Source: an uncultured Armatimonadetes bacterium
Lineage (GTDB): Bacteria > Armatimonadota > UBA5829 > DTJY01
Assembly (NCBI GenBank): GCA_963717145.1
Contig: OY970325.1
Coordinates: forward strand, 2,400,001-2,464,000
Direction: 5' to 3'
Length of the DNA: 64,000 bases
How positions within the stretch are numbered: the first letter of the stretch is position 1; every line of letters begins with the position of its first letter. The notes beneath the pieces are model-generated. The model was not told where the DNA came from and searched no databases. It saw only the letters and a list, made by a program, of their open reading frames with translations. Positions 29,023 through 47,038 of the stretch are shown here, in pieces. Both the position numbers and the translations under genes were made by a program.

Positions 29023-31242
29023 ATGGACAACCGGCAAGCGCAAAGGGTCACAGGCGGAACTCGATCCGCGGGCAGCGCCCTCGAGGCGATGGGACATCTG
29101 CATCGTCTATCGTCGCTGATTGCGTCCGGGCGACTTGACGAGGCCGTCAGCACGGCTGTCGAGATTCCAATCCAATGCCTCGGCATTAGCGCCTCCGCTC
29201 TGCTCCTTCCCTCATCGAATCCCGACAGACTGCGCCTCATTACCAGTCGCAACCTGAGCGCCGACCTGCAGAGAGACGTGATCACGTTCTGCAGCGATGA
29301 TCTCATCGATTGGGTCATCAAGAACGGAGCGCCGAAGGCGATCAATGATTTCGCCGCGCTCCTTCCCGAGGCATCATCCCGCTATCTGCAATACGGCATG
29401 AGGGCCGCCGTTTGCGCACCGGTCGACATTGCCGGGGCATCACCCGGTGCGCTGCTGTGCGTTTCCCGGTCACCGAAGGCATTCGCGGTCTGGGAGGTAG
29501 AGCTGATCTCCCTGCTGGCCAACCAGATCACGTCGGTTCTCCGACAGCAACAGACGACGACCCCGGTCCCGAGCCCGCCCCCCGACGATCCAACTCCGGA
29601 GGTCGAGAGCGCCGGCGACATAGTTCAACGGGTGCTCACCGAAGCACTCTCTTCCGTTCATGCGGACGGTGGCTCGATCATGGCCAAACACGGCAACCGT
29701 CTGCGGATCATCGCCTCTCAGGGCCTTCATGCGGACGCGCCTCGATCCTCGAGCCTCTCGGACAAGACGATCACATCCTGGGTCGCTCTGCACGGCAAGC
29801 CCGTAACGCTGAACGGCAAAGTGCAGGACGAGCGATTCGCGCCCGCGGTAGCGCGCCCTGAGATCGTCTCCGCGATGTCCGTGCCTCTGACGAGCGGCAA
29901 CAGCATCGTCGGGGTTCTCAATGTGCACAGCACGCAAGCCTGGCGGTCATACACGCCTCGGGATCTGGGCACTCTCGGCAAGGTCGCCGGGCGTGTGGCT
30001 CTCGGCATCGAATACGCCAGGCTCTTCGAGGAGTCCAAGAGCCAGACTCGTTACCTGCGAAGCCTCTATAGGATCGCGCGCGCCATCACGTCCACCCTCG
30101 ACCTCGATAGTGTCGTGCAGGTGATCATCAAGTACATGTGCGAGCACTTGTCCTCGGACGTGTGCGCGTTGCTCATGTACGATCGCTCATACGACGAGAT
30201 CCAGCTCGCGGGGGGTTACTCGGCGTCCGGCGGTCCGGATGAGCAGTACATGCAGCTAATGAGGCCGGCAGTCAAGGCCGTGCGCCGTTCGAAGCGACCG
30301 TTGGAGTACCACGACCTGCTGAAGGCTCCGGAATACGCGAATGTCGAGGCCGTACACAGGCTCGGGCTCCGATCGGGAGTCGTGGCCGCACTCTCGGTCA
30401 AGGGACACATTGTCGGTTTCGTGGCCGCATTCCGCCGTCAACCGGGGGGATTCGCGCGCCAGGTGGTGAAGGTGCTGCCCGGCCTCGCGGAACTCGCGGC
30501 TATCGCGATCGAGAATGCCAGGCTGTATCAGCGGCAGGTCGATATCGCGCATCTGACGCAGAAGACCCTTGTGCCGATGTCCCTGCAAGACATCCCCGGC
30601 TTCGATATCGGCTACAAATACGCACCCGCTTACCAGGTCGGCGGTGACTATTGCGATATAATCAGACTGCAGGACGGGCGGTACGGGATCGCGATCGCGG
30701 ATGTGGCGGGCAAGGATATCAAGGCGGCGGCGCACATCGGGATGTGCCGGCACTCGCTCCGCGCCGTTGCTGATGAGATCAAATCGCCCGCCGTTCTGAT
30801 GAAGAAGATGAACCAGTGCGTGTGCGATCAGACCGAGCCCGAGGCGTTCATCAGCATGATCTACGCGATCCTCGATCCGGCAACAAGGAAGCTCACGCTC
30901 TGCTCTGCAGGCCACGAACCAGCCGTCGTTTTCCGCAAGAAATCCGTATGCCTGGAGGAACTGTCAACATTCAACCTGCTGCTCGGCATACGACCGCATG
31001 AGACTTACGGCCAACGAAGGACCTCGATACGACCTGGGGATATTCTCACACTGTACACAGACGGCTTGGTCGAGGCTCTCGCGAGCGGGGAGACTCCGGG
31101 TGTGGAGAAGCTCAAGAGCCTGCTCGTCGACTGCCACATGCAGCCGATGCAGGAGATAGCCGACACTCTCCACGATCAGGCGTCTGATCACACGACAAGG
31201 AACCCGGATGATATCGCGCTGATTCTGCTGAAGGCATTGTGA
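29023..31242 (+). CDS. GAF x3 plus PP2C (SpoIIE/RsbU-type) phosphatase
   Basis: VGGDYCD, IADVAGK, SAGHEP, YTDGLVE, DDIAL. Confidence 0.9.
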   Translation: MDNRQAQRVTGGTRSAGSALEAMGHLHRLSSLIASGRLDEAVSTAVEIPIQCLGISASALLLPSSNPDRLRLITSRNLSADLQRDVITFCSDDLIDWVIKNGAPKAINDFAALLPEASSRYLQYGMRAAVCAPVDIAGASPGALLCVSRSPKAFAVWEVELISLLANQITSVLRQQQTTTPVPSPPPDDPTPEVESAGDIVQRVLTEALSSVHADGGSIMAKHGNRLRIIASQGLHADAPRSSSLSDKTITSWVALHGKPVTLNGKVQDERFAPAVARPEIVSAMSVPLTSGNSIVGVLNVHSTQAWRSYTPRDLGTLGKVAGRVALGIEYARLFEESKSQTRYLRSLYRIARAITSTLDLDSVVQVIIKYMCEHLSSDVCALLMYDRSYDEIQLAGGYSASGGPDEQYMQLMRPAVKAVRRSKRPLEYHDLLKAPEYANVEAVHRLGLRSGVVAALSVKGHIVGFVAAFRRQPGGFARQVVKVLPGLAELAAIAIENARLYQRQVDIAHLTQKTLVPMSLQDIPGFDIGYKYAPAYQVGGDYCDIIRLQDGRYGIAIADVAGKDIKAAAHIGMCRHSLRAVADEIKSPAVLMKKMNQCVCDQTEPEAFISMIYAILDPATRKLTLCSAGHEPAVVFRKKSVCLEELSTFNLLLGIRPHETYGQRRTSIRPGDILTLYTDGLVEALASGETPGVEKLKSLLVDCHMQPMQEIADTLHDQASDHTTRNPDDIALILLKAL

Positions 31243-31256
31243 GTAACAACGCGAAT

Positions 31257-31359
31257 CTTCGGCCCGGCAAGTAGGGAACGGTCGCTGTCCCGTTCCGCTG
31301 GTGTCGTCTCCAACGATGCGGAAAGGGACGGCGACCGTTCCCTACTTGCTGGGCCGAAG
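31257..31359. repeat. Family A REP doublet within an extended inverted repeat between convergent genes
   Basis: cttcggcccggcaagtagggaacgg...ccgttccctacttgctgggccgaag. Confidence 0.85.
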
Positions 31360-31364
31360 GTTCG

Positions 31365-32756
<1,392 letters not shown>

Positions 32757-32775
32757 GGCTTACCTCGCGTATCCC

Positions 32776-32872
32776 GTAGTGGCCGTGCCTCCGTGCCGGC
32801 CTGCACCGGTCGCTGCAGTGCCACTATCCCAAACAAGATCGGTACAGGCCGGCACGGAGGCACGGCCACTAC
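32776..32872. repeat. Family C REP doublet
   Basis: gtagtggccgtgcctccgtgccggcc...ggccggcacggaggcacggccactac. Confidence 0.88.
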
Positions 32873-32878
32873 GGGTGG

Positions 32879-34069
32879 TCATCCTTTCTTCATCAGCGAC
32901 CAGTACATCCGTGACTGGAGGCCGTGGATCTTGACGGCCCCGGTCATCTCGCTCTGATCGAACGTCTTAGTATCGAACGACGCCAGGTCCTCGGAGTAGA
33001 GCGCGTACTTGCTGCTCCGTCCCTCGACCTTCGCCGATCCCTTGAAGAGCTGCATCCGGACCGTGCCGGTCACCCGCTCCTGAATCTTGTCGATGAACGC
33101 CTCGAGGTCGTCCTTGAGCGGGTCGAACCAGAGGCCTGCGTATGCCAGCTCGCCCCACTTCTGGTCGACCATCGTCTTGAACTGCCGCTCGTCCTTCGTG
33201 CAGACGAGGCCTTCGAGCGCCTTGTGAGCCATGATGAGGATCACCGCGGCCGGGCACTCGTAGTTCTCGCGCACCTTGAGCCCGAGCATCCGGTCCTCCA
33301 TGACATCGACTCGCCCGACACCGTTCCGACCGGCGATCTCATGCGCCGCCTTGACGAGTTCGACCGGACCCATCGCCCTGCCGTTGATAGCGACCGGGAC
33401 GCCCTTCTCGAAGGCGATCTCGACGGTCTCCGGCTCATTCCGGCTGTCCTGAATGCTTTTCGTCCACTGGAAGATCTCCTCCGGCGGCGTGTAGTTCGGC
33501 TCTTCGAGCCGTCCGCCCTCGATCGAGCGGCCCCACAGGTTCTCGTCGATGCTCCAGATCTTCTCGACCGTCTGCGCGATCGGGACGCCGTGCTCCCTGG
33601 CGTAGTCGATCTCCTCCGTGCGGGTGTAGTTGTGCTCCCGCATCGGTGCGATGATCGGCAGGTCGGGGCACATGGTGCGCCATACGAACTCGATTCTGAA
33701 CTGGTCGTTCCCCTTGCCGGTGCATCCGTGGCAGAACGCATCCGCGCCGACCTTCTTGGCGATCTCGGCGCTCTTCAGCGGCAATCAGCGGCCGGGCGAT
33801 GGAGGTGCTGATCGGATAGCCCTGGTAGTCGCCGTTCGCCTTGACCGCCGGGAAGCAGTAGTCCGTCACGAACTCGTCTTTGGCGTCGATGGTGTAGTGC
33901 TCGGTGCCGAGGGCGTCGCCCGCTCCTCCGCCTGCTTGATGTCCTCCTCGGGCTGACCGACGTCCACCGTGACGGTGACGATATGATCGAATCCGTAGTC
34001 CTCCTTCATCATCGGTATGCAGACGGACGTGTCGAGTCCCCCGGAATATGCGAGTACGACTTTCTTCAT
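32879..34069 (-). pseudogene. argG: Argininosuccinate synthase split by two indels (near 33915 and 33780), probably a sequencing artefact
   Basis: [10 protein letters not shown] in frame 1; [21 protein letters not shown] in frame 2; [10 protein letters not shown] and the remainder back in frame 1. Confidence 0.9.
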
Positions 34070-34079
34070 AGCTCCCCTC

Positions 34080-34120
34080 CCAGAATGGTTAATGGCTGAT
34101 GGTTGATGGTTGATGGCAGA
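34080..34120. repeat. 7-bp repeat tract (gatggtt) upstream of argG RBS
   Basis: cccagaatggttaatggctgatggttgatggttgatgg. Confidence 0.65.
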
Positions 34121-34147
34121 CCGGCTCCCATCGAACCATGCTCTTCG

Positions 34148-35587
34148 CTACATCACCAGTGCCATGACCGCCTTCTGGGCGTGCAGGCGGTTCTCAGCCT
34201 CGTCGAAGACGACCGACTGCGGGCCGTCGATCACCTCGTCGGTGATCTCCTCGCCCCTGTGCGCGGGCAGGCAGTGCAGGACGATGCTGTCGGCCTTCGA
34301 CACGTCCACGAGCGCCTGGTTGACCTGGTATGGCCGGAAGATCGGGAGGCGCACCTCGCTCTCGGCCTCCTGGCCCATGCTCGTCCAGACATCGGTGTAT
34401 ATCGCGTCGGCGTCCCGGGCGGCTTCCATCGGATCGGTCGTGATGGTGATCGTCGCGCCGTTCTCGTCCGCCTCGCGCTTGGCTGCCGTGTGGATCACCG
34501 TGTCGGGCTCGTATCCCTCTGGGCAGCCGACCGCGAAGTTCGCGCCGAGTTTCGCCGCGAGTAGCATCAGGCTGTGGCACGTGTTGCTGCTGCCGTCGCC
34601 GATGTACGCGACCTTGAGGCCCTTGGGATCGCCCTTCTTTTCGTATATTGTGAGGAAATCGGCCAGCGCCTGGCAAGGGTGCTCCAGGTCGGAGAGGCCG
34701 TTGATCACCGGTATGTTCGCGTATTTCGCGAGATCGACGACGGTCTGGTGCGAGAACACCCGCGCCATGATGCCCTGCACCATGCGCTCGAAGTTCCGAG
34801 CCGCGTCGGGAACGCTTTCCCGAGTGCCGAGCGCGATGTCGGACGGCTGGATGTAGATCGCATGTCCGCCGAGCTGAGTCATCCCCGTCTCGAAGGTCAC
34901 CCTGGTCCGCAGCGATGGCTTCTCGAAGATCATCGCGAGCGTCTTGCCGGGCAAGATCGGATGATCGACCTGGTACTGCAGCGTTCGGCCTTTGAGCAAT
35001 CCGGCAACCTGGAAGATGGCGTATACTTCGTCCCTGGTAAGGTCGCGGATGGAAAGTAGATCGCGGCCCCGCAGAGCATCGGTCGCTACGGTCGTTACAT
35101 CTGCATGCTTTGTTTCCATCGTGTACTCTCCTTCGCCGACCGCTTTCCTGGCTGTGCCAAGATCGATACCGGCTTCCACCAGTGCTTTTCCAGCTTCGCC
35201 TCTCCCAACCCGCAGGAGTCCGAGGAGCAGGTGCTCAGTGCCTATGCAGTCACAACTCAAGCGGCGGGCCTCGTCGTAAGCCATGTCAATCACCTGTTTA
35301 CCGCGCCGACTGAGCATCCTCTCCTGACGCTCTTTCCCATCACCCAGGCGCAGGCGCCTCCACATCTCGTCCCTGAGATCCCCGGGATCGACCTCGTTCT
35401 GTTCGAGGATACGCCATGCAACCGAGTCCGGCATGTGCAGCAGTCCGAGCAGCAGGTGCTCCGTCCCAACAATGGTAGAGCGAACCAAGTCCGCCTCCTC
35501 GTCGGCGTAAATAACGGCTCGTCGTGCCTTCTCTGTAAGTCTCTGCCACATGGTTCGTCGTGCCTTCTCTGTAAGCCTCTGCCACAT
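34148..35587 (-). CDS. argF: Clp N-terminal domain fused in frame to ornithine carbamoyltransferase (possible internal start at 35119)
   Basis: Two GTEHLLLGL repeats, then FEKPSLRTR, HPCQALAD, DVWTSMG, HCLP, FDEAENRLH. Confidence 0.9.
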   Translation of the reverse strand: MWQRLTEKARRTMWQRLTEKARRAVIYADEEADLVRSTIVGTEHLLLGLLHMPDSVAWRILEQNEVDPGDLRDEMWRRLRLGDGKERQERMLSRRGKQVIDMAYDEARRLSCDCIGTEHLLLGLLRVGRGEAGKALVEAGIDLGTARKAVGEGEYTMETKHADVTTVATDALRGRDLLSIRDLTRDEVYAIFQVAGLLKGRTLQYQVDHPILPGKTLAMIFEKPSLRTRVTFETGMTQLGGHAIYIQPSDIALGTRESVPDAARNFERMVQGIMARVFSHQTVVDLAKYANIPVINGLSDLEHPCQALADFLTIYEKKGDPKGLKVAYIGDGSSNTCHSLMLLAAKLGANFAVGCPEGYEPDTVIHTAAKREADENGATITITTDPMEAARDADAIYTDVWTSMGQEAESEVRLPIFRPYQVNQALVDVSKADSIVLHCLPAHRGEEITDEVIDGPQSVVFDEAENRLHAQKAVMALVM

Positions 35588-35598
35588 GGTATTCACTC

Positions 35599-35685
35599 CC
35601 CAGAATGGTCAATGGGGAATGGTTGATGGTTGATGACAACCAGTCACCCATCCCCCATGAACCATAAACCATCGACCATTTCCCA
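35599..35685. repeat. Inverted pair of 7-bp repeat tracts (gatggtt / aaccatc)
   Basis: gaatggtcaatggggaatggttgatggttgatga ... ccatgaaccataaaccatcgaccatt. Confidence 0.65.
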
Positions 35686-35690
35686 TCCGG

Positions 35691-36185
35691 CTACGTCGTC
35701 GGCATGCATGCCGCGCCGGCGCCGCTGCCGTTAGACTGGCCGAACGGGAGGCGGCCTGCCTGCAGATTGCGAAGCTGGCTCAGGATCGCGCTCGGATCGG
35801 CGCCCAGCCGGTTGAGCACGCCGGCTGCAAGTCCGCCGGTCTCTCGTGACAGGCCGAGGAGCAGATGCTCGGTGCCTATCCATTCGTCACTAAGCCGTCT
35901 GCCCTCAGCAAATGCGTGGTCAATGACCTGCTTCGCATCGACAGTCAACTGAATGTCGTCGCCAAGGTGGTCGCAGCCACGGGACACAGATTTCATCAGC
36001 TCCGACTTAACCGTGCCGAGGTCGATGCCAAGACGCTCGAGCAGACTCGCGGCAACACAGTCGTCCTCGCGGATGAGCGCAAGGAGCAGGTGTTCCGGCC
36101 CAACGTGATTGTAGCCCAGCTTTTCGGCTTCCTGCTGGGCCAGGAAGATCGCCTTCCTGGCATGCTGAGTGAGTTGTCTCCACAT
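35691..36185 (-). CDS. Stand-alone Clp N-terminal (double Clp-R repeat) domain protein
   Basis: AGGAGG RBS; LAQQEAEKLGYNHVGPEHLLL and EGRRLSDEWIGTEHLLLGL; no AAA+ domain. Confidence 0.88.
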   Translation of the reverse strand: MWRQLTQHARKAIFLAQQEAEKLGYNHVGPEHLLLALIREDDCVAASLLERLGIDLGTVKSELMKSVSRGCDHLGDDIQLTVDAKQVIDHAFAEGRRLSDEWIGTEHLLLGLSRETGGLAAGVLNRLGADPSAILSQLRNLQAGRLPFGQSNGSGAGAACMPTT

Positions 36186-36200
36186 ACTAATGCCTCCTGG

Positions 36201-36233
36201 TAAACTCGAAATTCGAAACTCGAAATCCGAAAT
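36201..36233. repeat. 7-bp tandem repeat (aaa[ct][tc]cg)
   Basis: aaactcgaaattcgaaactcgaaatccgaaatc. Confidence 0.65.
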
Positions 36234-37444
36234 CAGTCCAAGACTCCATTCACAATCCGGACGGCAGTGTCCACGTCTTCTCTGGTCACAATTAGCGGCG
36301 GGAGGAATCGGATGATGCTCGCACCGATCGCATTCACGATGAGCCCATCCCTCAGACACCTCGCAGCAATCTCCGAGGCATCGCTTCGGTTCGTCTCCAT
36401 GGCCACCATCAAACCGACTCCCCTGATCTCCTTGATATCGTCTCGCTTGTCCTTTAGACGCATGAGCGCGTCGCGAAAGTATGCGCCCACTTCGGCGGCA
36501 TTATCCACGAGGCGCTCGTCCTCGATGGCCTGCAGGGTCGCGAGTGCAGCCGCACACGCCAGCGGATTCCCTCCAAACGTCGAGGCGTGATTCCCCGGTT
36601 CGAATGCCGACGCGACTTTGTCGGTCGCGAGGCATGCGCCTATCGGAAATCCACCGCCGAGTGTCTTCGCCAGGCTCATGATGTCCGGCTTGATCCCATA
36701 GTGCTCGAAGCCGAACCACTTGCCGGTGCGTCCGAGACCTGTCTGCACCTCGTCAAGTATCAGCAGCAGGCCCCGGGCATCGCAGATCTGCCGGATCGAT
36801 CTCAGGTACTCCGTCGAGGCCGGATGCACCCCACTCTCACCCTGGATCGGCTCGAGCATAATCGCGCACGTGCTCGGACCGATCGCGGCTTCGAGCGCGG
36901 GGAGATCGTTGTAAGGCACGTACTTGAAGCCCGGCATCAGGGGCTCGAAATCCTTGTGATATTTCGGCTGGCCGGTAGCGGTCACCGTCGCGAGCGTTCG
37001 TCCATGGAACGACGCCTCCGCGGTGATGATCTCGAACCGCTCGGGGCCGTGGTGGAGCTTCGACCACTTGCGCGCGAGCTTGATGGCGGCTTCGTTCGCC
37101 TCGGCGCCGCTGTTGCAGAAGAACGCCTTGCCCATGCCGGACAGCCCGACCAGTTTCTTCGCGAGGGTCGGCCCCTGGGGCGTGAAGTAGAGGTTGCAGA
37201 CGTGCATCAGAGTGCCCGCCTGCTCCTGAATAGCGCCGACTACCGCCGGATGAGCGTGGCCCAAGCCGTTCACTGCGATCCCGGCGAGGAAGTCGAGGTA
37301 CTCCCTGCCCTCGGAGTCCCAGACCTTCATCCCCCGGCCTCGGACGAGCACCACCGGCTGACGTCCGTAGGTGTGCATGATGTAATCCGAATCCATCTGC
37401 ATCACCGTCTGTGTGTCAACCTCGGGTTTCGATATCACCGCCAT
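36233..37444 (-). CDS. argD: Acetylornithine aminotransferase
   Basis: FFCNSGAEANE, SFHGRT, LEPIQGE, DEVQTG, AKTLGGG, HASTFGGNP. Confidence 0.95.
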   Translation of the reverse strand: MAVISKPEVDTQTVMQMDSDYIMHTYGRQPVVLVRGRGMKVWDSEGREYLDFLAGIAVNGLGHAHPAVVGAIQEQAGTLMHVCNLYFTPQGPTLAKKLVGLSGMGKAFFCNSGAEANEAAIKLARKWSKLHHGPERFEIITAEASFHGRTLATVTATGQPKYHKDFEPLMPGFKYVPYNDLPALEAAIGPSTCAIMLEPIQGESGVHPASTEYLRSIRQICDARGLLLILDEVQTGLGRTGKWFGFEHYGIKPDIMSLAKTLGGGFPIGACLATDKVASAFEPGNHASTFGGNPLACAAALATLQAIEDERLVDNAAEVGAYFRDALMRLKDKRDDIKEIRGVGLMVAMETNRSDASEIAARCLRDGLIVNAIGASIIRFLPPLIVTREDVDTAVRIVNGVLD

Positions 37445-37469
37445 TTGTCCTCTCCTGCCAGATCATCGT

Positions 37470-37538
37470 GTGGGGGCGAACCATTGGCTGCCGGTGGCCA
37501 CCTCGTTGCACGTTCGGTAGCCAATGCTTCGCCCCTAC
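37470..37538. repeat. GTAG-type REP doublet (family H)
   Basis: ggggcgaaccattggctgcc...ggtagccaatgcttcgcccctac; homologue at 51738. Confidence 0.8.
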
Positions 37539-37544
37539 AGCATA

Positions 37545-37578
37545 GAAACGAAAAGAGACAGAGTCGTGCCTCTGCCTC
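37545..37578 (-). terminator. Intrinsic terminator in the argD leader (attenuator candidate)
   Basis: GAGGCAGAG-gcacga-CUCUGUCUC followed by UUUUCGUUUC. Confidence 0.7.
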
Positions 37579-37662
37579 TACAGTACGCTGAATCGCCGTA
37601 TTCCATTGTCATGCAGATCGGCTTTTTCATGTCCATCCGCCCTGACACTTGGTTGTTGATCT

Positions 37663-37691
37663 ATTCTACAGACCCCACGAGAAAATGTCAA
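37663..37691 (-). promoter_or_regulatory. Near-consensus sigma70 promoter upstream of argD
   Basis: TTGACA-N17-TAGAAT. Confidence 0.75.
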
Positions 37692-37695
37692 CCAT

Positions 37696-37777
37696 TTGGA
37701 GTGCGGTGGCTCGACACCGCTTTGTTCTTCGGCGGCTTGACGCCGTCCGCGAAAGCGGTGTCGAGCCACCGCACTCC
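37696..37777. repeat. Family D REP doublet
   Basis: tggagtgcggtggctcgacaccgcttt...aaagcggtgtcgagccaccgcactcca. Confidence 0.88.
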
Positions 37778-37780
37778 AGA

Positions 37781-38638
37781 TCATGCAATCATGGTGCCGA
37801 TGCCCTTGTCCGTGAACACCTCGATCAGAAGCGCATGAGGGATCGTGCCGTCGATGATGTGCGCCCGCTCGACCCCGCCGTCACGCGCCGTGACGCACGC
37901 CTCGACCTTCGGGATCATGCCCGAATCAACCGCGCCCGACCGGATCAGGCCGTGCGCCTGCTTGACGGTGAGCTGCGAAATCAGGCTCGACTTGTCGCTG
38001 AAATCCTTATAGATGCCGAGAACGTCGGTCAGCACAATCAGTTTTGACGCGACGAGAGCCGCCGCGAGTTTCCCCGCCGCGTGATCGGCATTGATGTTGT
38101 ACGTCTTACCGTCGCGACCGACCGCCACGGATGAGATAACGGGGATGTATCCCTCCCGGATCAGGGTCTGGATGAGGTCGGTGTTGATCTCCACCACGTC
38201 TCCTACGAATCCGAGATCGCCGCCCTCCGAGACCATCTTCTCCGCGACGAAAAGGTCGCCGTCCTTGCCGCTCAACCCGACGGCCTTACCGCCCTGCCGA
38301 TTGATCAGCGCCACGATGCCTTTGTTCGTCTTGCCGGTCAGGACCATCTCGACGATCTCCATCGTCTCCTCGTCGGTGACGCGCAGACCGCCAACAAAGG
38401 CGGGCTCCTTGCCGACCTTCTTCATCATCTCGCTGATCTCCGGCCCGCCGCCGTGAACGAGCACAGGCTGCATGCCGACATAGCGCATGAGCACGATATC
38501 GCGCATAACGCTTTCCTTGAGTTCGGGGTTGACCATGGCGTTGCCACCGTACTTGATGACGATGGTCTGCCCGGAGTACCGCCGTATGTATGGCAGCGCC
38601 TGAACCAGTATCTTGGCGTCCTCGATTGCCTTTTCCAC
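37781..38638 (-). CDS. argB: Acetylglutamate kinase
   Basis: VIKYGGNAM, VHGGGP, GLRVTD, YNINAD, GMIPKV; GGGAGG plus GTG. Confidence 0.96.
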   Translation of the reverse strand: MEKAIEDAKILVQALPYIRRYSGQTIVIKYGGNAMVNPELKESVMRDIVLMRYVGMQPVLVHGGGPEISEMMKKVGKEPAFVGGLRVTDEETMEIVEMVLTGKTNKGIVALINRQGGKAVGLSGKDGDLFVAEKMVSEGGDLGFVGDVVEINTDLIQTLIREGYIPVISSVAVGRDGKTYNINADHAAGKLAAALVASKLIVLTDVLGIYKDFSDKSSLISQLTVKQAHGLIRSGAVDSGMIPKVEACVTARDGGVERAHIIDGTIPHALLIEVFTDKGIGTMIA

Positions 38639-38651
38639 TAGAACCTCCCGG

Positions 38652-38763
38652 AGAACACAGATGACACAGATGGCAGATGATGGAACAGATGGAAGGGGAA
38701 CTGGGATTTCAACACCCATGAACTATCCTTATCATCCCTCTCCATCCGTGTCATCTGTGTTCT
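38652..38763. repeat. MITE-like element with 9-bp-periodic terminal inverted repeats
   Basis: agaacacagatgacacagatgg...ccatccgtgtcatctgtgttct. Confidence 0.65.
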
Positions 38764-38769
38764 TTTGCC

Positions 38770-39975
38770 TTACGTATGGTACTCCGCGTTGATGCGGATG
38801 TAGTCGTATGAGAAATCGCAGGTCCAGACGGTCGCGGATCCCTGCCCACTTCCGATTCTGAGCAGGACGGCGACCTCCCGATTGGTCAGGTATTCGTGTG
38901 CCTGCTGCTCCGAAAAGTCCGTCGGCTCGCCGTTCTCGATGAGCGCGATCGGCCCGAAGCTGAGCTTCACGTCGGCCGGATCGAAGTCGACGCCTGCCCT
39001 TCCGGCGGCGGCTAGCACCCTGCCCCAGTTCGGATCCTTGCCGAACATGGCCGTCTTCACGAGGGGCGAGTTGGCGATCGTCTTGGCCACCGACCGAGCA
39101 TCCTCGAAGGAACGAGCGCCTTCGACCTTGATCTCGATAAACTTCGTCGCCCCTTCGCCGTCCGATGCGATCTGTTTGGCCAGCGACGTGGTGACGAAGT
39201 CGAGCGCCTCCTGGAAGGCATCGAGTTCGGCGGTCCCCTGCCCAAACTGCGGGTAGCCGGCTGCTCCGTTCGCCAGGATGATGACGCTGTCGTTCGTGCT
39301 GCTGTCACCATCGACGGTCAGGCAGTTGAACGACGTCTCGACCGACTTCGACAGGCACGACTGCAGCAGGTCGGGCGCGAGGGCGGCATCCGTCGTGATG
39401 AACGCGAGCATCGTCGCCATGTTCGGGCAGATCATGCCCGCGCCCTTGGCGATCCCGCCGATGCGGATGACCTTCCCCCCGAGAGTGAATTCGACGCAAG
39501 CCGTCTTGGGCCGAGTATCGGTGGTCATGATCGCACGAGCGGCGAGTGGGCCGCCCCCGTCGCTCAGAGTCTCGCGTGCCTGCTTGATTCCGGCCAGAAT
39601 CTTGTCCATCGGAAGCCGTTTGCCGATGATACCCGTCGATGCGACGAGAACATCCTCCTCAGTCACCTCGAGGAGCCCGGCAGCCTCATTCGCCGTCCGC
39701 AATGCATCCTGGTGGCCGGCCTCTCCCGTGCAGGCATTCGCATTCCCGCTGTTGACGACGATCGCCCGCGCGGTCGCCCTGGGAAGCCTGAGAGAGTCGA
39801 TCTGCACCGACGCGGCCTTGACCACGTTCGTCGTAAAGACGCCCGCCGCCGATGCCTGGCGCTCCGAAACGATGAGCGCGAGGTCCTCTCCCTGCTCCTT
39901 GATCCCGGCTCGGACTCCCGACGCCAGGAATCCCGCGGGCGCGGTGACTGTACCTTCTATCTCTTTGAAACTCAT
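38770..39975 (-). CDS. argJ: Glutamate N-acetyltransferase / ornithine acetyltransferase
   Basis: NSGNANACTG, IMTTDT, KGAGMICPNMATML, DGEGATK, DPNWGR. Confidence 0.97.
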   Translation of the reverse strand: MSFKEIEGTVTAPAGFLASGVRAGIKEQGEDLALIVSERQASAAGVFTTNVVKAASVQIDSLRLPRATARAIVVNSGNANACTGEAGHQDALRTANEAAGLLEVTEEDVLVASTGIIGKRLPMDKILAGIKQARETLSDGGGPLAARAIMTTDTRPKTACVEFTLGGKVIRIGGIAKGAGMICPNMATMLAFITTDAALAPDLLQSCLSKSVETSFNCLTVDGDSSTNDSVIILANGAAGYPQFGQGTAELDAFQEALDFVTTSLAKQIASDGEGATKFIEIKVEGARSFEDARSVAKTIANSPLVKTAMFGKDPNWGRVLAAAGRAGVDFDPADVKLSFGPIALIENGEPTDFSEQQAHEYLTNREVAVLLRIGSGQGSATVWTCDFSYDYIRINAEYHT

Positions 39976-40001
39976 AGCGGTGTCCTCTGGTTTTCGCCAC
40001 G

Positions 40002-40031
40002 ATGATAGCATTACGGGCAACCGTTTGGCAA
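40002..40031 (-). promoter_or_regulatory. argJ promoter candidate
   Basis: TTGCCA-N18-TATCAT with extended -10 TG. Confidence 0.5.
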
Positions 40032-40037
40032 ACCTTT

Positions 40038-40122
40038 GGAGTGCGGAAGCGGGAGGGCGAGGCTCCGTCCGAGCCGGGATACATGGCTCGGACGGAGCCT
40101 CGCCCTCCCGCTTCCGCACTCC
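40038..40122. repeat. Perfect 38-bp-arm composite REP palindrome
   Basis: ggagtgcggaagcgggagggcgaggctccgtccgagcc, 9-nt loop, exact reverse complement. Confidence 0.88.
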
Positions 40123-40192
40123 GAAACACAAAAGGCCGGAGCAAGATGCCCCGGCCCGGAAAAGTGACGAGTGATGGCTATCCGAGCGCGGT

Positions 40193-41005
40193 CTAAGACC
40201 TACGAGCGGCGACGAGCCAATTGGTGTATCGGGAACCGAGCAGATTGTCTATGCCGACTCCACCTCGGGATGAGGACGAGTGGATGAACATGCCGTTGCC
40301 CATGTATATGCCCGCATGGTCGACCGCGCCACCCTTGCAGCAGAAGTAGAGCCGATCGCCGGCCTGAAGCTGGCTGAACGACACAGCCGTCCCAACGTTC
40401 GCCTGGTCCCGCGCGACTCTCGGCAGGCTGACACCGTGGCTGGCGAAGACGGCTTTGACGAACCCGGAGCAGTCCAGGCCACTGAATGAATAGCCGCCCC
40501 AAACATACGGGATGCCGAGGTATTTGATCGCGGTGTTGACGACCTGACTGCCCGATGCGCTCGACGCGGTCTGCGTGCCGACAACCTGGTAGTCGAGCAG
40601 GCTCACCGATTTCTTCGCGATCCATCCGGTGCTCCCGTTGGACATCAGGACGCCGTACCAGGCGCTGTTTTCGCCGACAATGGCGATATAGGTGTCCTTC
40701 GAGCACGTGTAGTACGTGCGGCCCTTCGAACTCGGGACTGACTCGATGTCCGCCTTGGCGGAGATGATAACGCCGACCCGGCCGATGGGCGCTTCTTTGC
40801 CTGAGGCCTTGGTCTGAGTCTCCGCTCGGTACTGCTGCGTGGAGGCGTTCGCTCTGGTTGCGCCCGTCGTCTCGTGATTCAAGCGCATTTCCGCGCTCTT
40901 CGACGGCGACGCATCGAGAGTTATGGTGAGAGTCTGTTCTGCAACCGCACAGGATCCGAGGATGGCAAGAAGCGCCAACCCCGGTAGTATCAACCTTCGC
41001 AACAT
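40193..41005 (-). CDS. SH3 plus NlpC/P60 cell-wall peptidase
   Basis: Signal peptide; WYGV...TGWI SH3-like; YLGIPYVWGG, DCSGF, HAGIY. Confidence 0.92.
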   Translation of the reverse strand: MLRRLILPGLALLAILGSCAVAEQTLTITLDASPSKSAEMRLNHETTGATRANASTQQYRAETQTKASGKEAPIGRVGVIISAKADIESVPSSKGRTYYTCSKDTYIAIVGENSAWYGVLMSNGSTGWIAKKSVSLLDYQVVGTQTASSASGSQVVNTAIKYLGIPYVWGGYSFSGLDCSGFVKAVFASHGVSLPRVARDQANVGTAVSFSQLQAGDRLYFCCKGGAVDHAGIYMGNGMFIHSSSSRGGVGIDNLLGSRYTNWLVAARRS

Positions 41006-46962: not shown

Positions 46963-47038
46963 GGGAATGGTTGATGTCTGATGGCTGATGGTTGATGGGG
47001 ATGCCATCAACCATTGACCATCAACCATCAACCATTCC
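46963..47038. repeat. Inverted pair of 7-bp repeat tracts (gatggtt/aaccatc) at adk-map junction
   Basis: ggaatggttgatgtctgatggctgatggttgatgg...ccatcaaccattgaccatcaaccatcaaccattcc. Confidence 0.7.

Follow-up and report, generated by a model that had tools for sequence, protein, structure and literature searches.

The argF gene in a 64,000-nucleotide stretch of DNA from an uncultured Armatimonadetes bacterium (assembly GCA_963717145.1, contig OY970325.1, positions 2,400,001 to 2,464,000; the whole stretch is referred to as the window) encoded an ornithine carbamoyltransferase (OTCase) preceded, in a single 482-codon frame, by a double Clp_N repeat of the type that forms the N-terminal domain (NTD) of the unfoldase ClpC, through which the ClpC protease recognizes its substrates. 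A second, stand-alone double Clp_N protein, designated ClpNs, was encoded between argD and this clpN-argF fusion. The fusion is real and is conserved across the Armatimonadota. The Clp_N domains are, as judged from sequence, of the ClpC-NTD type and mostly retain the Thr and Glu landmarks of both pockets that accommodate phospho-arginine (pArg) in ClpC. The best reading, put forward tentatively, is that the fused domain is a tethered reader of pArg or of ClpC partners that would couple arginine synthesis to the stress system of the arginine kinase McsB and ClpC. An initial annotation of the window had reported both the coordinates of the stand-alone gene between argD and argF and a Clp-N domain in frame with OTCase, and the open frames and the Pfam matches (Clp_N, OTCace_N and OTCace) bore it out on both counts.

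The evidence for the architecture came from relatives. Among the ArgF matches in 40 genomes of the same class and in the genome itself, many spanned both domains without a stop, and the cases scored as '1 TAA' were fused too, their stop being located where the match ends. A hidden Markov model (HMM) of the double repeat was built and run on the stop-to-stop frames of 60 ArgF loci, comprising the 20 best rows of the class search and 40 picks from a phylum scan with either a match starting at or before query residue 20 or an open frame not shorter than 480 codons. Because they were picked for signs of fusion, these loci are not a random sample. ClpN and ArgF shared one frame at 55 of the 60 loci, with a single copy at 50 (one of them, in genome G001, cut by a frame break), two copies at four and three copies at one, while the ArgF frame of the other five had no ClpN. 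The phylum scan covered 401 genomes, 308 of which had an ArgF match with E ≤ 1e-60, and the fusion was counted among the best 150 of these 308 matches. Of those, 71 were fused, 51 as judged by a match spanning both domains (36 of them HMM-checked; G001 was included although its match begins at residue 63) and 20 by the length of the open frame, 480 codons or more (18 HMM-checked, the other two being G372 and G282). The fusion occurred in at least 12 families, and at four loci of one family the surrounding DNA, to a distance of about 3 kb, lacked any further arg gene.

Given these data, the probability that the fusion is an assembly artefact, in which an indel hides a stop between separate clpN and argF genes, is negligible. 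The same assembly does have a pair of indels that compensate each other in argG, at a distance of 1.2 kb, but the in-frame junction recurred in the 55 loci of other genomes, and a metagenome contig of a relative from another study (X1 record 5, 636 nt) spanned positions 34917-35548, across the junction, where its sole gap was 9 nt long, in frame, and located at 35080 in the linker. The initial annotation had named a concealed stop near 35120 as one danger to its proposal and had suggested that the junction be checked; for the architecture, that danger has been removed. It had also suggested a search for ClpN-ArgF fusions and for ClpN genes in the arg operons of relatives, and both were found, the latter as ClpNs in the genome's own family. 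Its alternative, a lineage-wide expansion of ClpN genes inserted at random, was refuted, since the genome, a single 5.37-Mb contig, had eight Clp_N repeat matches in four open frames, ClpC, ClpB, the fusion and ClpNs, and the fusion recurred at so many loci. No public sequencing run contained the window stretch (best share of words 0.09) and no RNA run was listed.

The names of homologues (Chthonomonadaceae, Chthonomonadales, 'Armatimonadetes bacterium') placed the group in the Armatimonadota. The named fused proteins belonged only to Chthonomonadaceae or Chthonomonadales and were all labelled simply 'ornithine carbamoyltransferase'. Full-text literature searches found no paper describing a ClpC-NTD-type domain on OTCase or on another biosynthetic enzyme. 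The database representatives also included a 721-residue ArgD-ArgF fusion (P0198; Aminotran_3, OTCace_N and OTCace) and a 720-residue protein, P0213, that resembled it in length and in the position of ArgF.

In the fusion, Pfam recognized Clp_N in two stretches (75.9 bits), OTCace_N at residues 178-319 and OTCace at residues 325-480. The enzyme part belonged to the OTCase family by two NCBIfam models, NF001986 (421.5 bits, cut-off 306) and TIGR00658 (409.6 bits, cut-off 280.85). The translation contained SLRTR, HPCQ, DVWTSMG and HCLPAHRGEE, in columns that were invariant in 39 fused orthologues, and these matched the catalytic motifs SxRTR, HPxQ, DxxxSMG and HCLP. The fusion was the only OTCase of the genome, the other carbamoyltransferase-like match being partial and 29% identical. 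Pfam found no AAA family in either the fusion or ClpNs, neither of which is a Clp/Hsp100 AAA+ unfoldase; the NCBIfam ClpB, ClpK and ClpG matches covered the N-domain only and were far under the cut-off. A DNA-binding/dimerisation domain of the kind located at the N-terminus of ClpC2 was likewise absent from the Pfam matches of both proteins.

The likely start of clpN-argF is ATG 35587 rather than GTG 35596. It is preceded, 8 nt upstream, by GGGGAG, and its 479-residue product has the length of database entry P0002. A 36-bp tandem duplication repeats the first 12 codons of the ClpN domain (MWQRLTEKARR), its ATG included. The alignments of relatives with a single copy of the duplicated start begin at query residue 13-15, with MWQRFT occurring once at the start.

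Both repeats of the fused domain and of ClpNs exceeded the Clp_N gathering score. The best match of the fused domain among solved structures was to residues 1-138 of the M. tuberculosis ClpC1 NTD, with which it aligned without gaps (E = 1.7e-23), and that of ClpNs was to a plant ClpC1 NTD (E = 1.1e-30). The matches to ClpB NTDs were far weaker (2.8e-6 for the fusion and 7e-13 for ClpNs). In the S. aureus ClpC NTD, according to PMC12583610, pocket pArg1 comprises T7, R9 and E106 and pocket pArg2 has E32, with R122 nearby; K85 is an anchoring residue. On the basis of that paper and of PMC13345244, the pocket landmarks were defined as the N-terminal Thr of helices 1 and 5, the Glu of both (T)EH motifs and the nearby basic residues. 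The corresponding residues were T21, K23, E46, S96, R98, K100 and E121 in the fused domain of the window and T6, H8, E31, T81, D83, K85 and E106 in ClpNs. The initial annotation had aligned K/R in the fusion with H/D in the stand-alone protein at the basic positions and had stated that all four EH motifs are retained; K23/R98 versus H8/D83, and GTEH/GTEH in the fusion with GPEH/GTEH in ClpNs, agree with it. Across the 54 fused domains compared, T6 was Thr in 48 and Ser in 6, E31 was Glu in 50, T81 was Thr in 30 and Ser in 15, R83 was Arg in 32, K85 was Lys in 43 and E106 was Glu in 50.

In 6 of 10 genomes, the fused domain proximal to ArgF had 81-95% protein identity to the ClpC NTD of the same genome, with only 34-68% identity at four-fold synonymous sites, a combination indicating that selection keeps the domain similar to ClpC, or that gene conversion does so where the identity is highest. 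In the remaining four genomes, including the one studied here, the fused domain had diverged from the ClpC NTD. A tree built from 88 rows and 137 columns, which combined the N-domains of ClpC with the fused and the stand-alone ones, placed the ClpC NTDs on very short branches amid the fused domains and did not separate a single from a multiple origin of the fusion. A search of the ESM Atlas gave no usable match.

The close protein resemblance to ClpC in those six genomes, with synonymous sites near saturation, is also what a decoy would exhibit, that is, copies of the ClpC NTD that soak up adaptors, pArg clients or natural NTD-targeting cyclic peptides and so buffer ClpC, with OTCase as an abundant oligomeric carrier. 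The existence of ArgF with one to three tandem copies, and of proteins consisting of six to eight Clp_N repeats alone (P0001, P0005), fits such a sponge, and sequestration of cyclomarin-type antibiotics has been reported for ClpC2 (PMC13345244). However, a decoy would leave unexplained both the choice of ArgF as the carrier across the phylum and the co-occurrence with McsB described below, and the fused domain of the window, at 51% identity to the ClpC NTD of its own genome, would be a poor mimic. We regard this explanation as unlikely.

The genome, to judge from the gene matches, encodes a McsA-McsB-ClpC operon. Its McsB (PF00217, E = 5.3e-48) was located directly upstream of clpC and had 'protein arginine kinase' as the best NCBIfam match, at 262.6 bits, which is below the curated cut-off of 385; a McsA-like gene (E = 2.3e-15) preceded mcsB. 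McsB was found in 216 of the 401 genomes of the phylum scan. Among the best 150 of the 308 ArgF matches it was present in 63 of the 71 genomes with a fused ArgF and absent from 8, and with a plain ArgF it was present in 45 of 79 and absent from 34. In the genome's own class, leaving out two genomes whose fusion state was not known, the figures were 24 of 25 fused and 11 of 22 plain genomes. In its own family, McsB occurred in all seven fused genomes and in none of the three plain ones (G002, G003 and G008, the last a complete single contig). This co-occurrence is suggestive of a functional tie between the fusion and the McsB-ClpC system. In one genome of family f2 in which McsB was not found, a 159-codon stand-alone ClpN frame (G013:C1:1287-1739) lay right upstream of clpC, in the place that mcsB has elsewhere.

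The manner in which the domain is attached points to a tether. The linker was 18-170 residues long and little conserved among the 54 fused loci. An AlphaFold2 model of the fusion, built on a 39-sequence alignment, predicted both domains with confidence (mean predicted local distance difference test score, pLDDT, 92.1; ClpN domain about 90), with a linker pLDDT of 49 and a predicted template-modelling score (pTM) of 0.70. Because linker length and copy number vary, and because of this linker pLDDT and pTM, a module on a tether is a better match to the data than an allosteric domain docked on the enzyme. Elsewhere the module was fused, mostly in two copies, to FolD, to a pyridoxamine-phosphate-oxidase-like protein (Pyridox_ox_2) and to PIG-L, which points to a portable binding module rather than an arginine-specific allosteric domain. 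In family f29 (L052-L063, L069), the linker carried a conserved PSQRMAPP...(I/L)ADVL segment about 16 residues ahead of OTCase, and the conserved Arg of this disordered linker, adjacent to the putative pArg reader, could become phosphorylated and be read in cis. The 170-residue linker of L052 and L053 (G207, G294) looked as if it contained one more folded domain, placed ahead of ArgF and behind ClpN.

These properties bear on a further possibility, that the domain is a small-molecule sensor that binds free arginine, free pArg or carbamoyl phosphate, the last a chemically similar compound, and allosterically tunes or feeds OTCase. Its location on an arginine enzyme that uses carbamoyl phosphate would suit such a role, as would the merged arg-pyr-car cluster headed by ClpNs in G003, and micromolar dissociation constants for free pArg on ClpC-type NTDs are given in PMC9604228 and PMC13345244. 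Nevertheless, a linker and a copy number (1-3) that vary so widely, the low-confidence linker and the pTM, and the presence of the same module on FolD, PIG-L and oxidase-like enzymes all argue against it, and in a published assay non-phosphorylated arginine failed to activate ClpC via the NTD (PMC12583610). We assign the sensor only a small likelihood. The initial annotation had suggested repurposed arginine or pArg sensors acting by feedback control; the pArg side of that idea gained support from the ClpC-NTD type, the pocket landmarks, the McsA-McsB-ClpC genes and the association of the fusion with McsB, while feedback by free arginine did not, in view of the variable linker and copy number and the pTM.

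Several observations weigh against the interpretation of the fused domain as a tethered pArg reader, 1) the Glu-His motif is general to Clp_N domains, so that its retention carries little information and only the Thr/Ser and basic positions are specific, 2) the fused domain of the window is only 51% identical to the ClpC NTD of its own genome and K and S occupy two of its landmark positions, in addition to the N-terminal duplication, 3) it is fast-evolving, at 49% identity to the closest genus, and the nearest relative, G001, has a frame break inside the ClpN domain, 4) loss or decay of the domain has happened repeatedly, with decay in genus g80 as an example, which implies that it is dispensable, 5) eight of the 71 fused genomes among the best 150 of 308 ArgF matches had no McsB match, and families f10 (McsB in 0 of 32) and f9 (0 of 7) include fused members, so that the fusion survives without McsB, 6) the fusion has often been lost where McsB stays (11 genomes of the class) and the relatives are not independent, which leaves the association with McsB suggestive only, and 7) attachment of the module to FolD, the oxidase-like protein and PIG-L argues against an arginine-specific role.

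The third and fourth of these points would also be expected if the domain were vestigial in this genome, the working enzyme being a plain ArgF translated from ATG 35119 behind AAGGAG while the ClpN part decays. The initial annotation had noted this internal start. The Shine-Dalgarno (SD) sequence and the ATG are present in the linker; however, a Met with an SD sequence at the equivalent position was not conserved among the 54 fused loci and, within the family, was found in no other member examined, so the short product was kept as a low-probability rival only. The non-synonymous divergence (dN) from the closest genus was 0.45 for the fused domain compared with 0.09 for ArgF and 0.12 for ClpNs, a rate about five times higher. 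The 36-bp duplication at the start of the domain, the loss of the domain in G002, G003 and G008 and the two indels in the neighbouring argG are in keeping with decay. On the other hand, the frame is open over all 467 codons, the fold-critical and pocket residues are kept in a domain with a confidently predicted fold, and a dN of 0.45 against a neighbouring synonymous divergence (dS) of 0.75-1.07 still suggests constraint. A vestigial domain is consequently improbable, although fast non-synonymous change, the duplicated start and the G001 frame break make the domain look less constrained in this lineage than elsewhere.

ClpNs consists of two Clp_N repeats and a C-terminal tail, and its ATG is preceded, 7 nt upstream, by AGGAGG. 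It was directly upstream of the fusion in the family of the genome (7 genomes). In other families, six loci (L050, L052-L054, L057-L058, L065) likewise had a stand-alone ClpN frame next to ArgF, but these separated from ClpNs in the tree, where ClpNs formed one clade. The ClpNs orthologue family comprised 49 clusters (E ≤ 6e-49, 53-95% identity, 156-172 residues), the next match being at 1.7e-25. Of the 40 clusters caught by the pattern, 38 had an acidic residue, Glu or Asp, at position 83, and position 8 was K, R or H. A GxLPF-like motif followed the last helix in 48 of the 49 clusters versus none of 39 fused proteins at the matching place, and L138, G144, L146 and P147 were at least 90% conserved. 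In the AlphaFold2 model the protein started directly with the Clp_N fold, and pLDDT was below 50 at residues 145-164, as for a disordered tail. G003 and G008 have retained ClpNs despite the loss of both McsB and the fused domain, and in G003 it belonged to a merged argD-clpNs-pyrR-pyrB-pyrC-carA-carB-pyrK-pyrD-pyrF-argF cluster. By sequence comparison, ClpNs originated inside the family as a paralogue, in which the second-pocket Arg was exchanged for Glu or Asp and a GxLPF tail was gained. It probably acts via another partner, which we infer to be bound through the tail.

The closest known counterparts of the fused domain are ClpC and ClpC1, whose NTDs bind pArg and adaptors for the ClpCP protease and share its fold family and length. 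T6/E106, T81(S)/E31 and K85 are kept, and identity to the cognate ClpC NTD reaches 95% in some genomes. The difference from ClpC is that the domain is followed by OTCase instead of AAA+ modules, and that pArg binding is here predicted from the residues of a domain that, in the window, has diverged from its cognate. Actinobacterial ClpC2, as described in PMC13345244, combines a DNA-binding domain with a ClpC1-NTD-like domain and is a pArg-responsive repressor, pArg sensor and antibiotic sponge, in which a pocket Thr is essential. It resembles the fusion in that a ClpC-NTD-like ligand-reading module with one or both pArg pockets kept is joined, outside an unfoldase, to another function. However, ClpC2 matched the fused domain less well than did the ClpC NTDs (E = 7.7e-14 vs 1.7e-23), its partner is a transcription factor and not an enzyme, the order of the domains is reversed and the phylum is different. 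Plant ClpT1 and ClpT2, which bind the ClpP core, are like ClpNs stand-alone double Clp-N proteins, and a short extra segment of ClpT is thought to mediate partner binding; their match to ClpNs was weak (E = 4e-5 and 5e-4) compared with 1e-30 for ClpC NTDs. The C-terminal 306 residues of the fusion are a standard ArgF, above the curated cut-offs and in an argJBD-F-GH cluster, whereas the plain form of ArgF has about 300-330 residues and no N-terminal domain.

Table 1. Features of the arg locus, in window coordinates. Residues of the fusion follow the 482-residue numbering.
Feature	Position	Strand	Details
argJ	38770-40131	minus	
argB	37781-38719	minus	
argD, acetylornithine aminotransferase	36233-37444	minus	Aminotran_3, 435 bits (Pfam); immediately upstream of the ClpNs gene
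Stand-alone ClpNs gene	35691-36185	minus	164 residues; two Clp_N stretches, 104 bits (Pfam)
ClpNs tail motif LRNLQAGRLPF	35742-35774	minus	Residues 138-148; start of the predicted disordered segment
clpN-argF fusion gene	34148-35596	minus	482-codon frame from GTG 35596; stop 34148-34150
36-bp tandem duplication	35519-35590	minus	2.0 copies, 97% matches
ClpC-NTD-type domain, double Clp_N	35132-35551	minus	Residues 16-155
Inter-domain linker	35069-35131	minus	Residues 156-176, poorly conserved; contains AAGGAG and ATG 35119 (residue 160)
OTCase domain	34151-35068	minus	Residues 177-482 (306 residues)
argH	31365-32756	minus	

The genes of the locus (Table 1) followed the order argJ-argB-argD-clpNs-clpN::argF-argG-argH on the minus strand. 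Between the fusion and argH, argG (minus; pieces 33866-34069, 33435-33869 and 32879-33784) was broken within 33770-33925 by two compensating 1-nt indels that placed residues of about 56-99 in another frame and left two stops in the main frame. Contigs of close relatives had one base fewer at 33778 and an extra T behind 33917, exactly at the indel sites. The break points to an error in the assembly or else to a pseudogene of very recent origin, and if real it would make the strain unable to produce arginine from citrulline.

The spacer between argB and argD (37445-37780, minus) contained a conserved leader with a promoter-like TTGACA-17-TAGAAT element (37691-37663, 11/12), a small open frame from ATG 37630 that begins MK[KMT]P in five genera and, after it, a G+C hairpin with a T run at 37579-37554. 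The positions of all three elements were kept in G006, G001, G004 and G009. The leader is a candidate leader-peptide/terminator attenuator for argD-clpNs-clpN::argF-argG-argH. An attenuator that reads Arg codons was rejected; the two AGA codons in the hairpin arm occur only in this genome, G004 and G009, and the small frame ends ahead of the hairpin in G006 and G001. An Rfam scan of 31000-41000, the leader included, matched no family. Right after the argB stop (37700-37780) was a perfect inverted repeat of about 25 bp, GAGTGCGGTGGCTCGACACCGCTTT ... AAAGCGGTGTCGAGCCACCGCACTC, which may be a terminator or a repeat element. Heptad repeats, (CATCAAC/CAACCAT)n, occupied intergenic spacers on both strands (34085-34115, 35619-35679 and 46967-47035), with 11 matches to a 17-mer at no more than two mismatches versus none expected from shuffles, and were found just 5' of the ribosome-binding sites of clpN::argF and argG.

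We infer pArg binding by the fused domain, and all of its downstream effects, from these comparisons. If the tethered ClpN acts like a ClpC NTD, it would recognize the pArg marks made by McsA/McsB and possibly other ClpC-NTD partners, and an OTCase trimer would display three or more such readers. The carbamoylation step of arginine synthesis would be physically coupled to stress response and proteolysis by McsB-ClpC(P), most likely with the effect of a stress-dependent recruitment of OTCase into pArg-marked assemblies that leads to its sequestration or turnover. Competition with ClpC for pArg clients would be a possible side effect, and the proteolytic targeting of OTCase that the initial annotation had raised is possible. 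A bolder proposal, at present doubtful, is that ClpN-OTCase is a reader-enzyme fusion for arginine phosphorylation, the bacterial counterpart of the SH2-domain enzymes, in which the enzyme that commits carbamoyl phosphate to arginine is directly recruited, sequestered or switched, either by McsB marks or by free pArg from ClpCP proteolysis, and in which three to nine readers per trimer compete with ClpC.

The fusion, conserved in a little-studied phylum, matters for annotation, the named fused proteins all bearing the plain label of ornithine carbamoyltransferase. Protein arginine phosphorylation is a degradation tag that is read by ClpC, and the reader-enzyme proposal, if true, would provide the first direct link of this modification to a biosynthetic pathway, and the product of that pathway is the amino acid on which the modification takes place. 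The synthesis of arginine and proteolysis by the arginine tag would then form one regulatory circuit across the Armatimonadota, and the copies of this portable reader carried by FolD, PIG-L and oxidase-like enzymes would bring other pathways into it.

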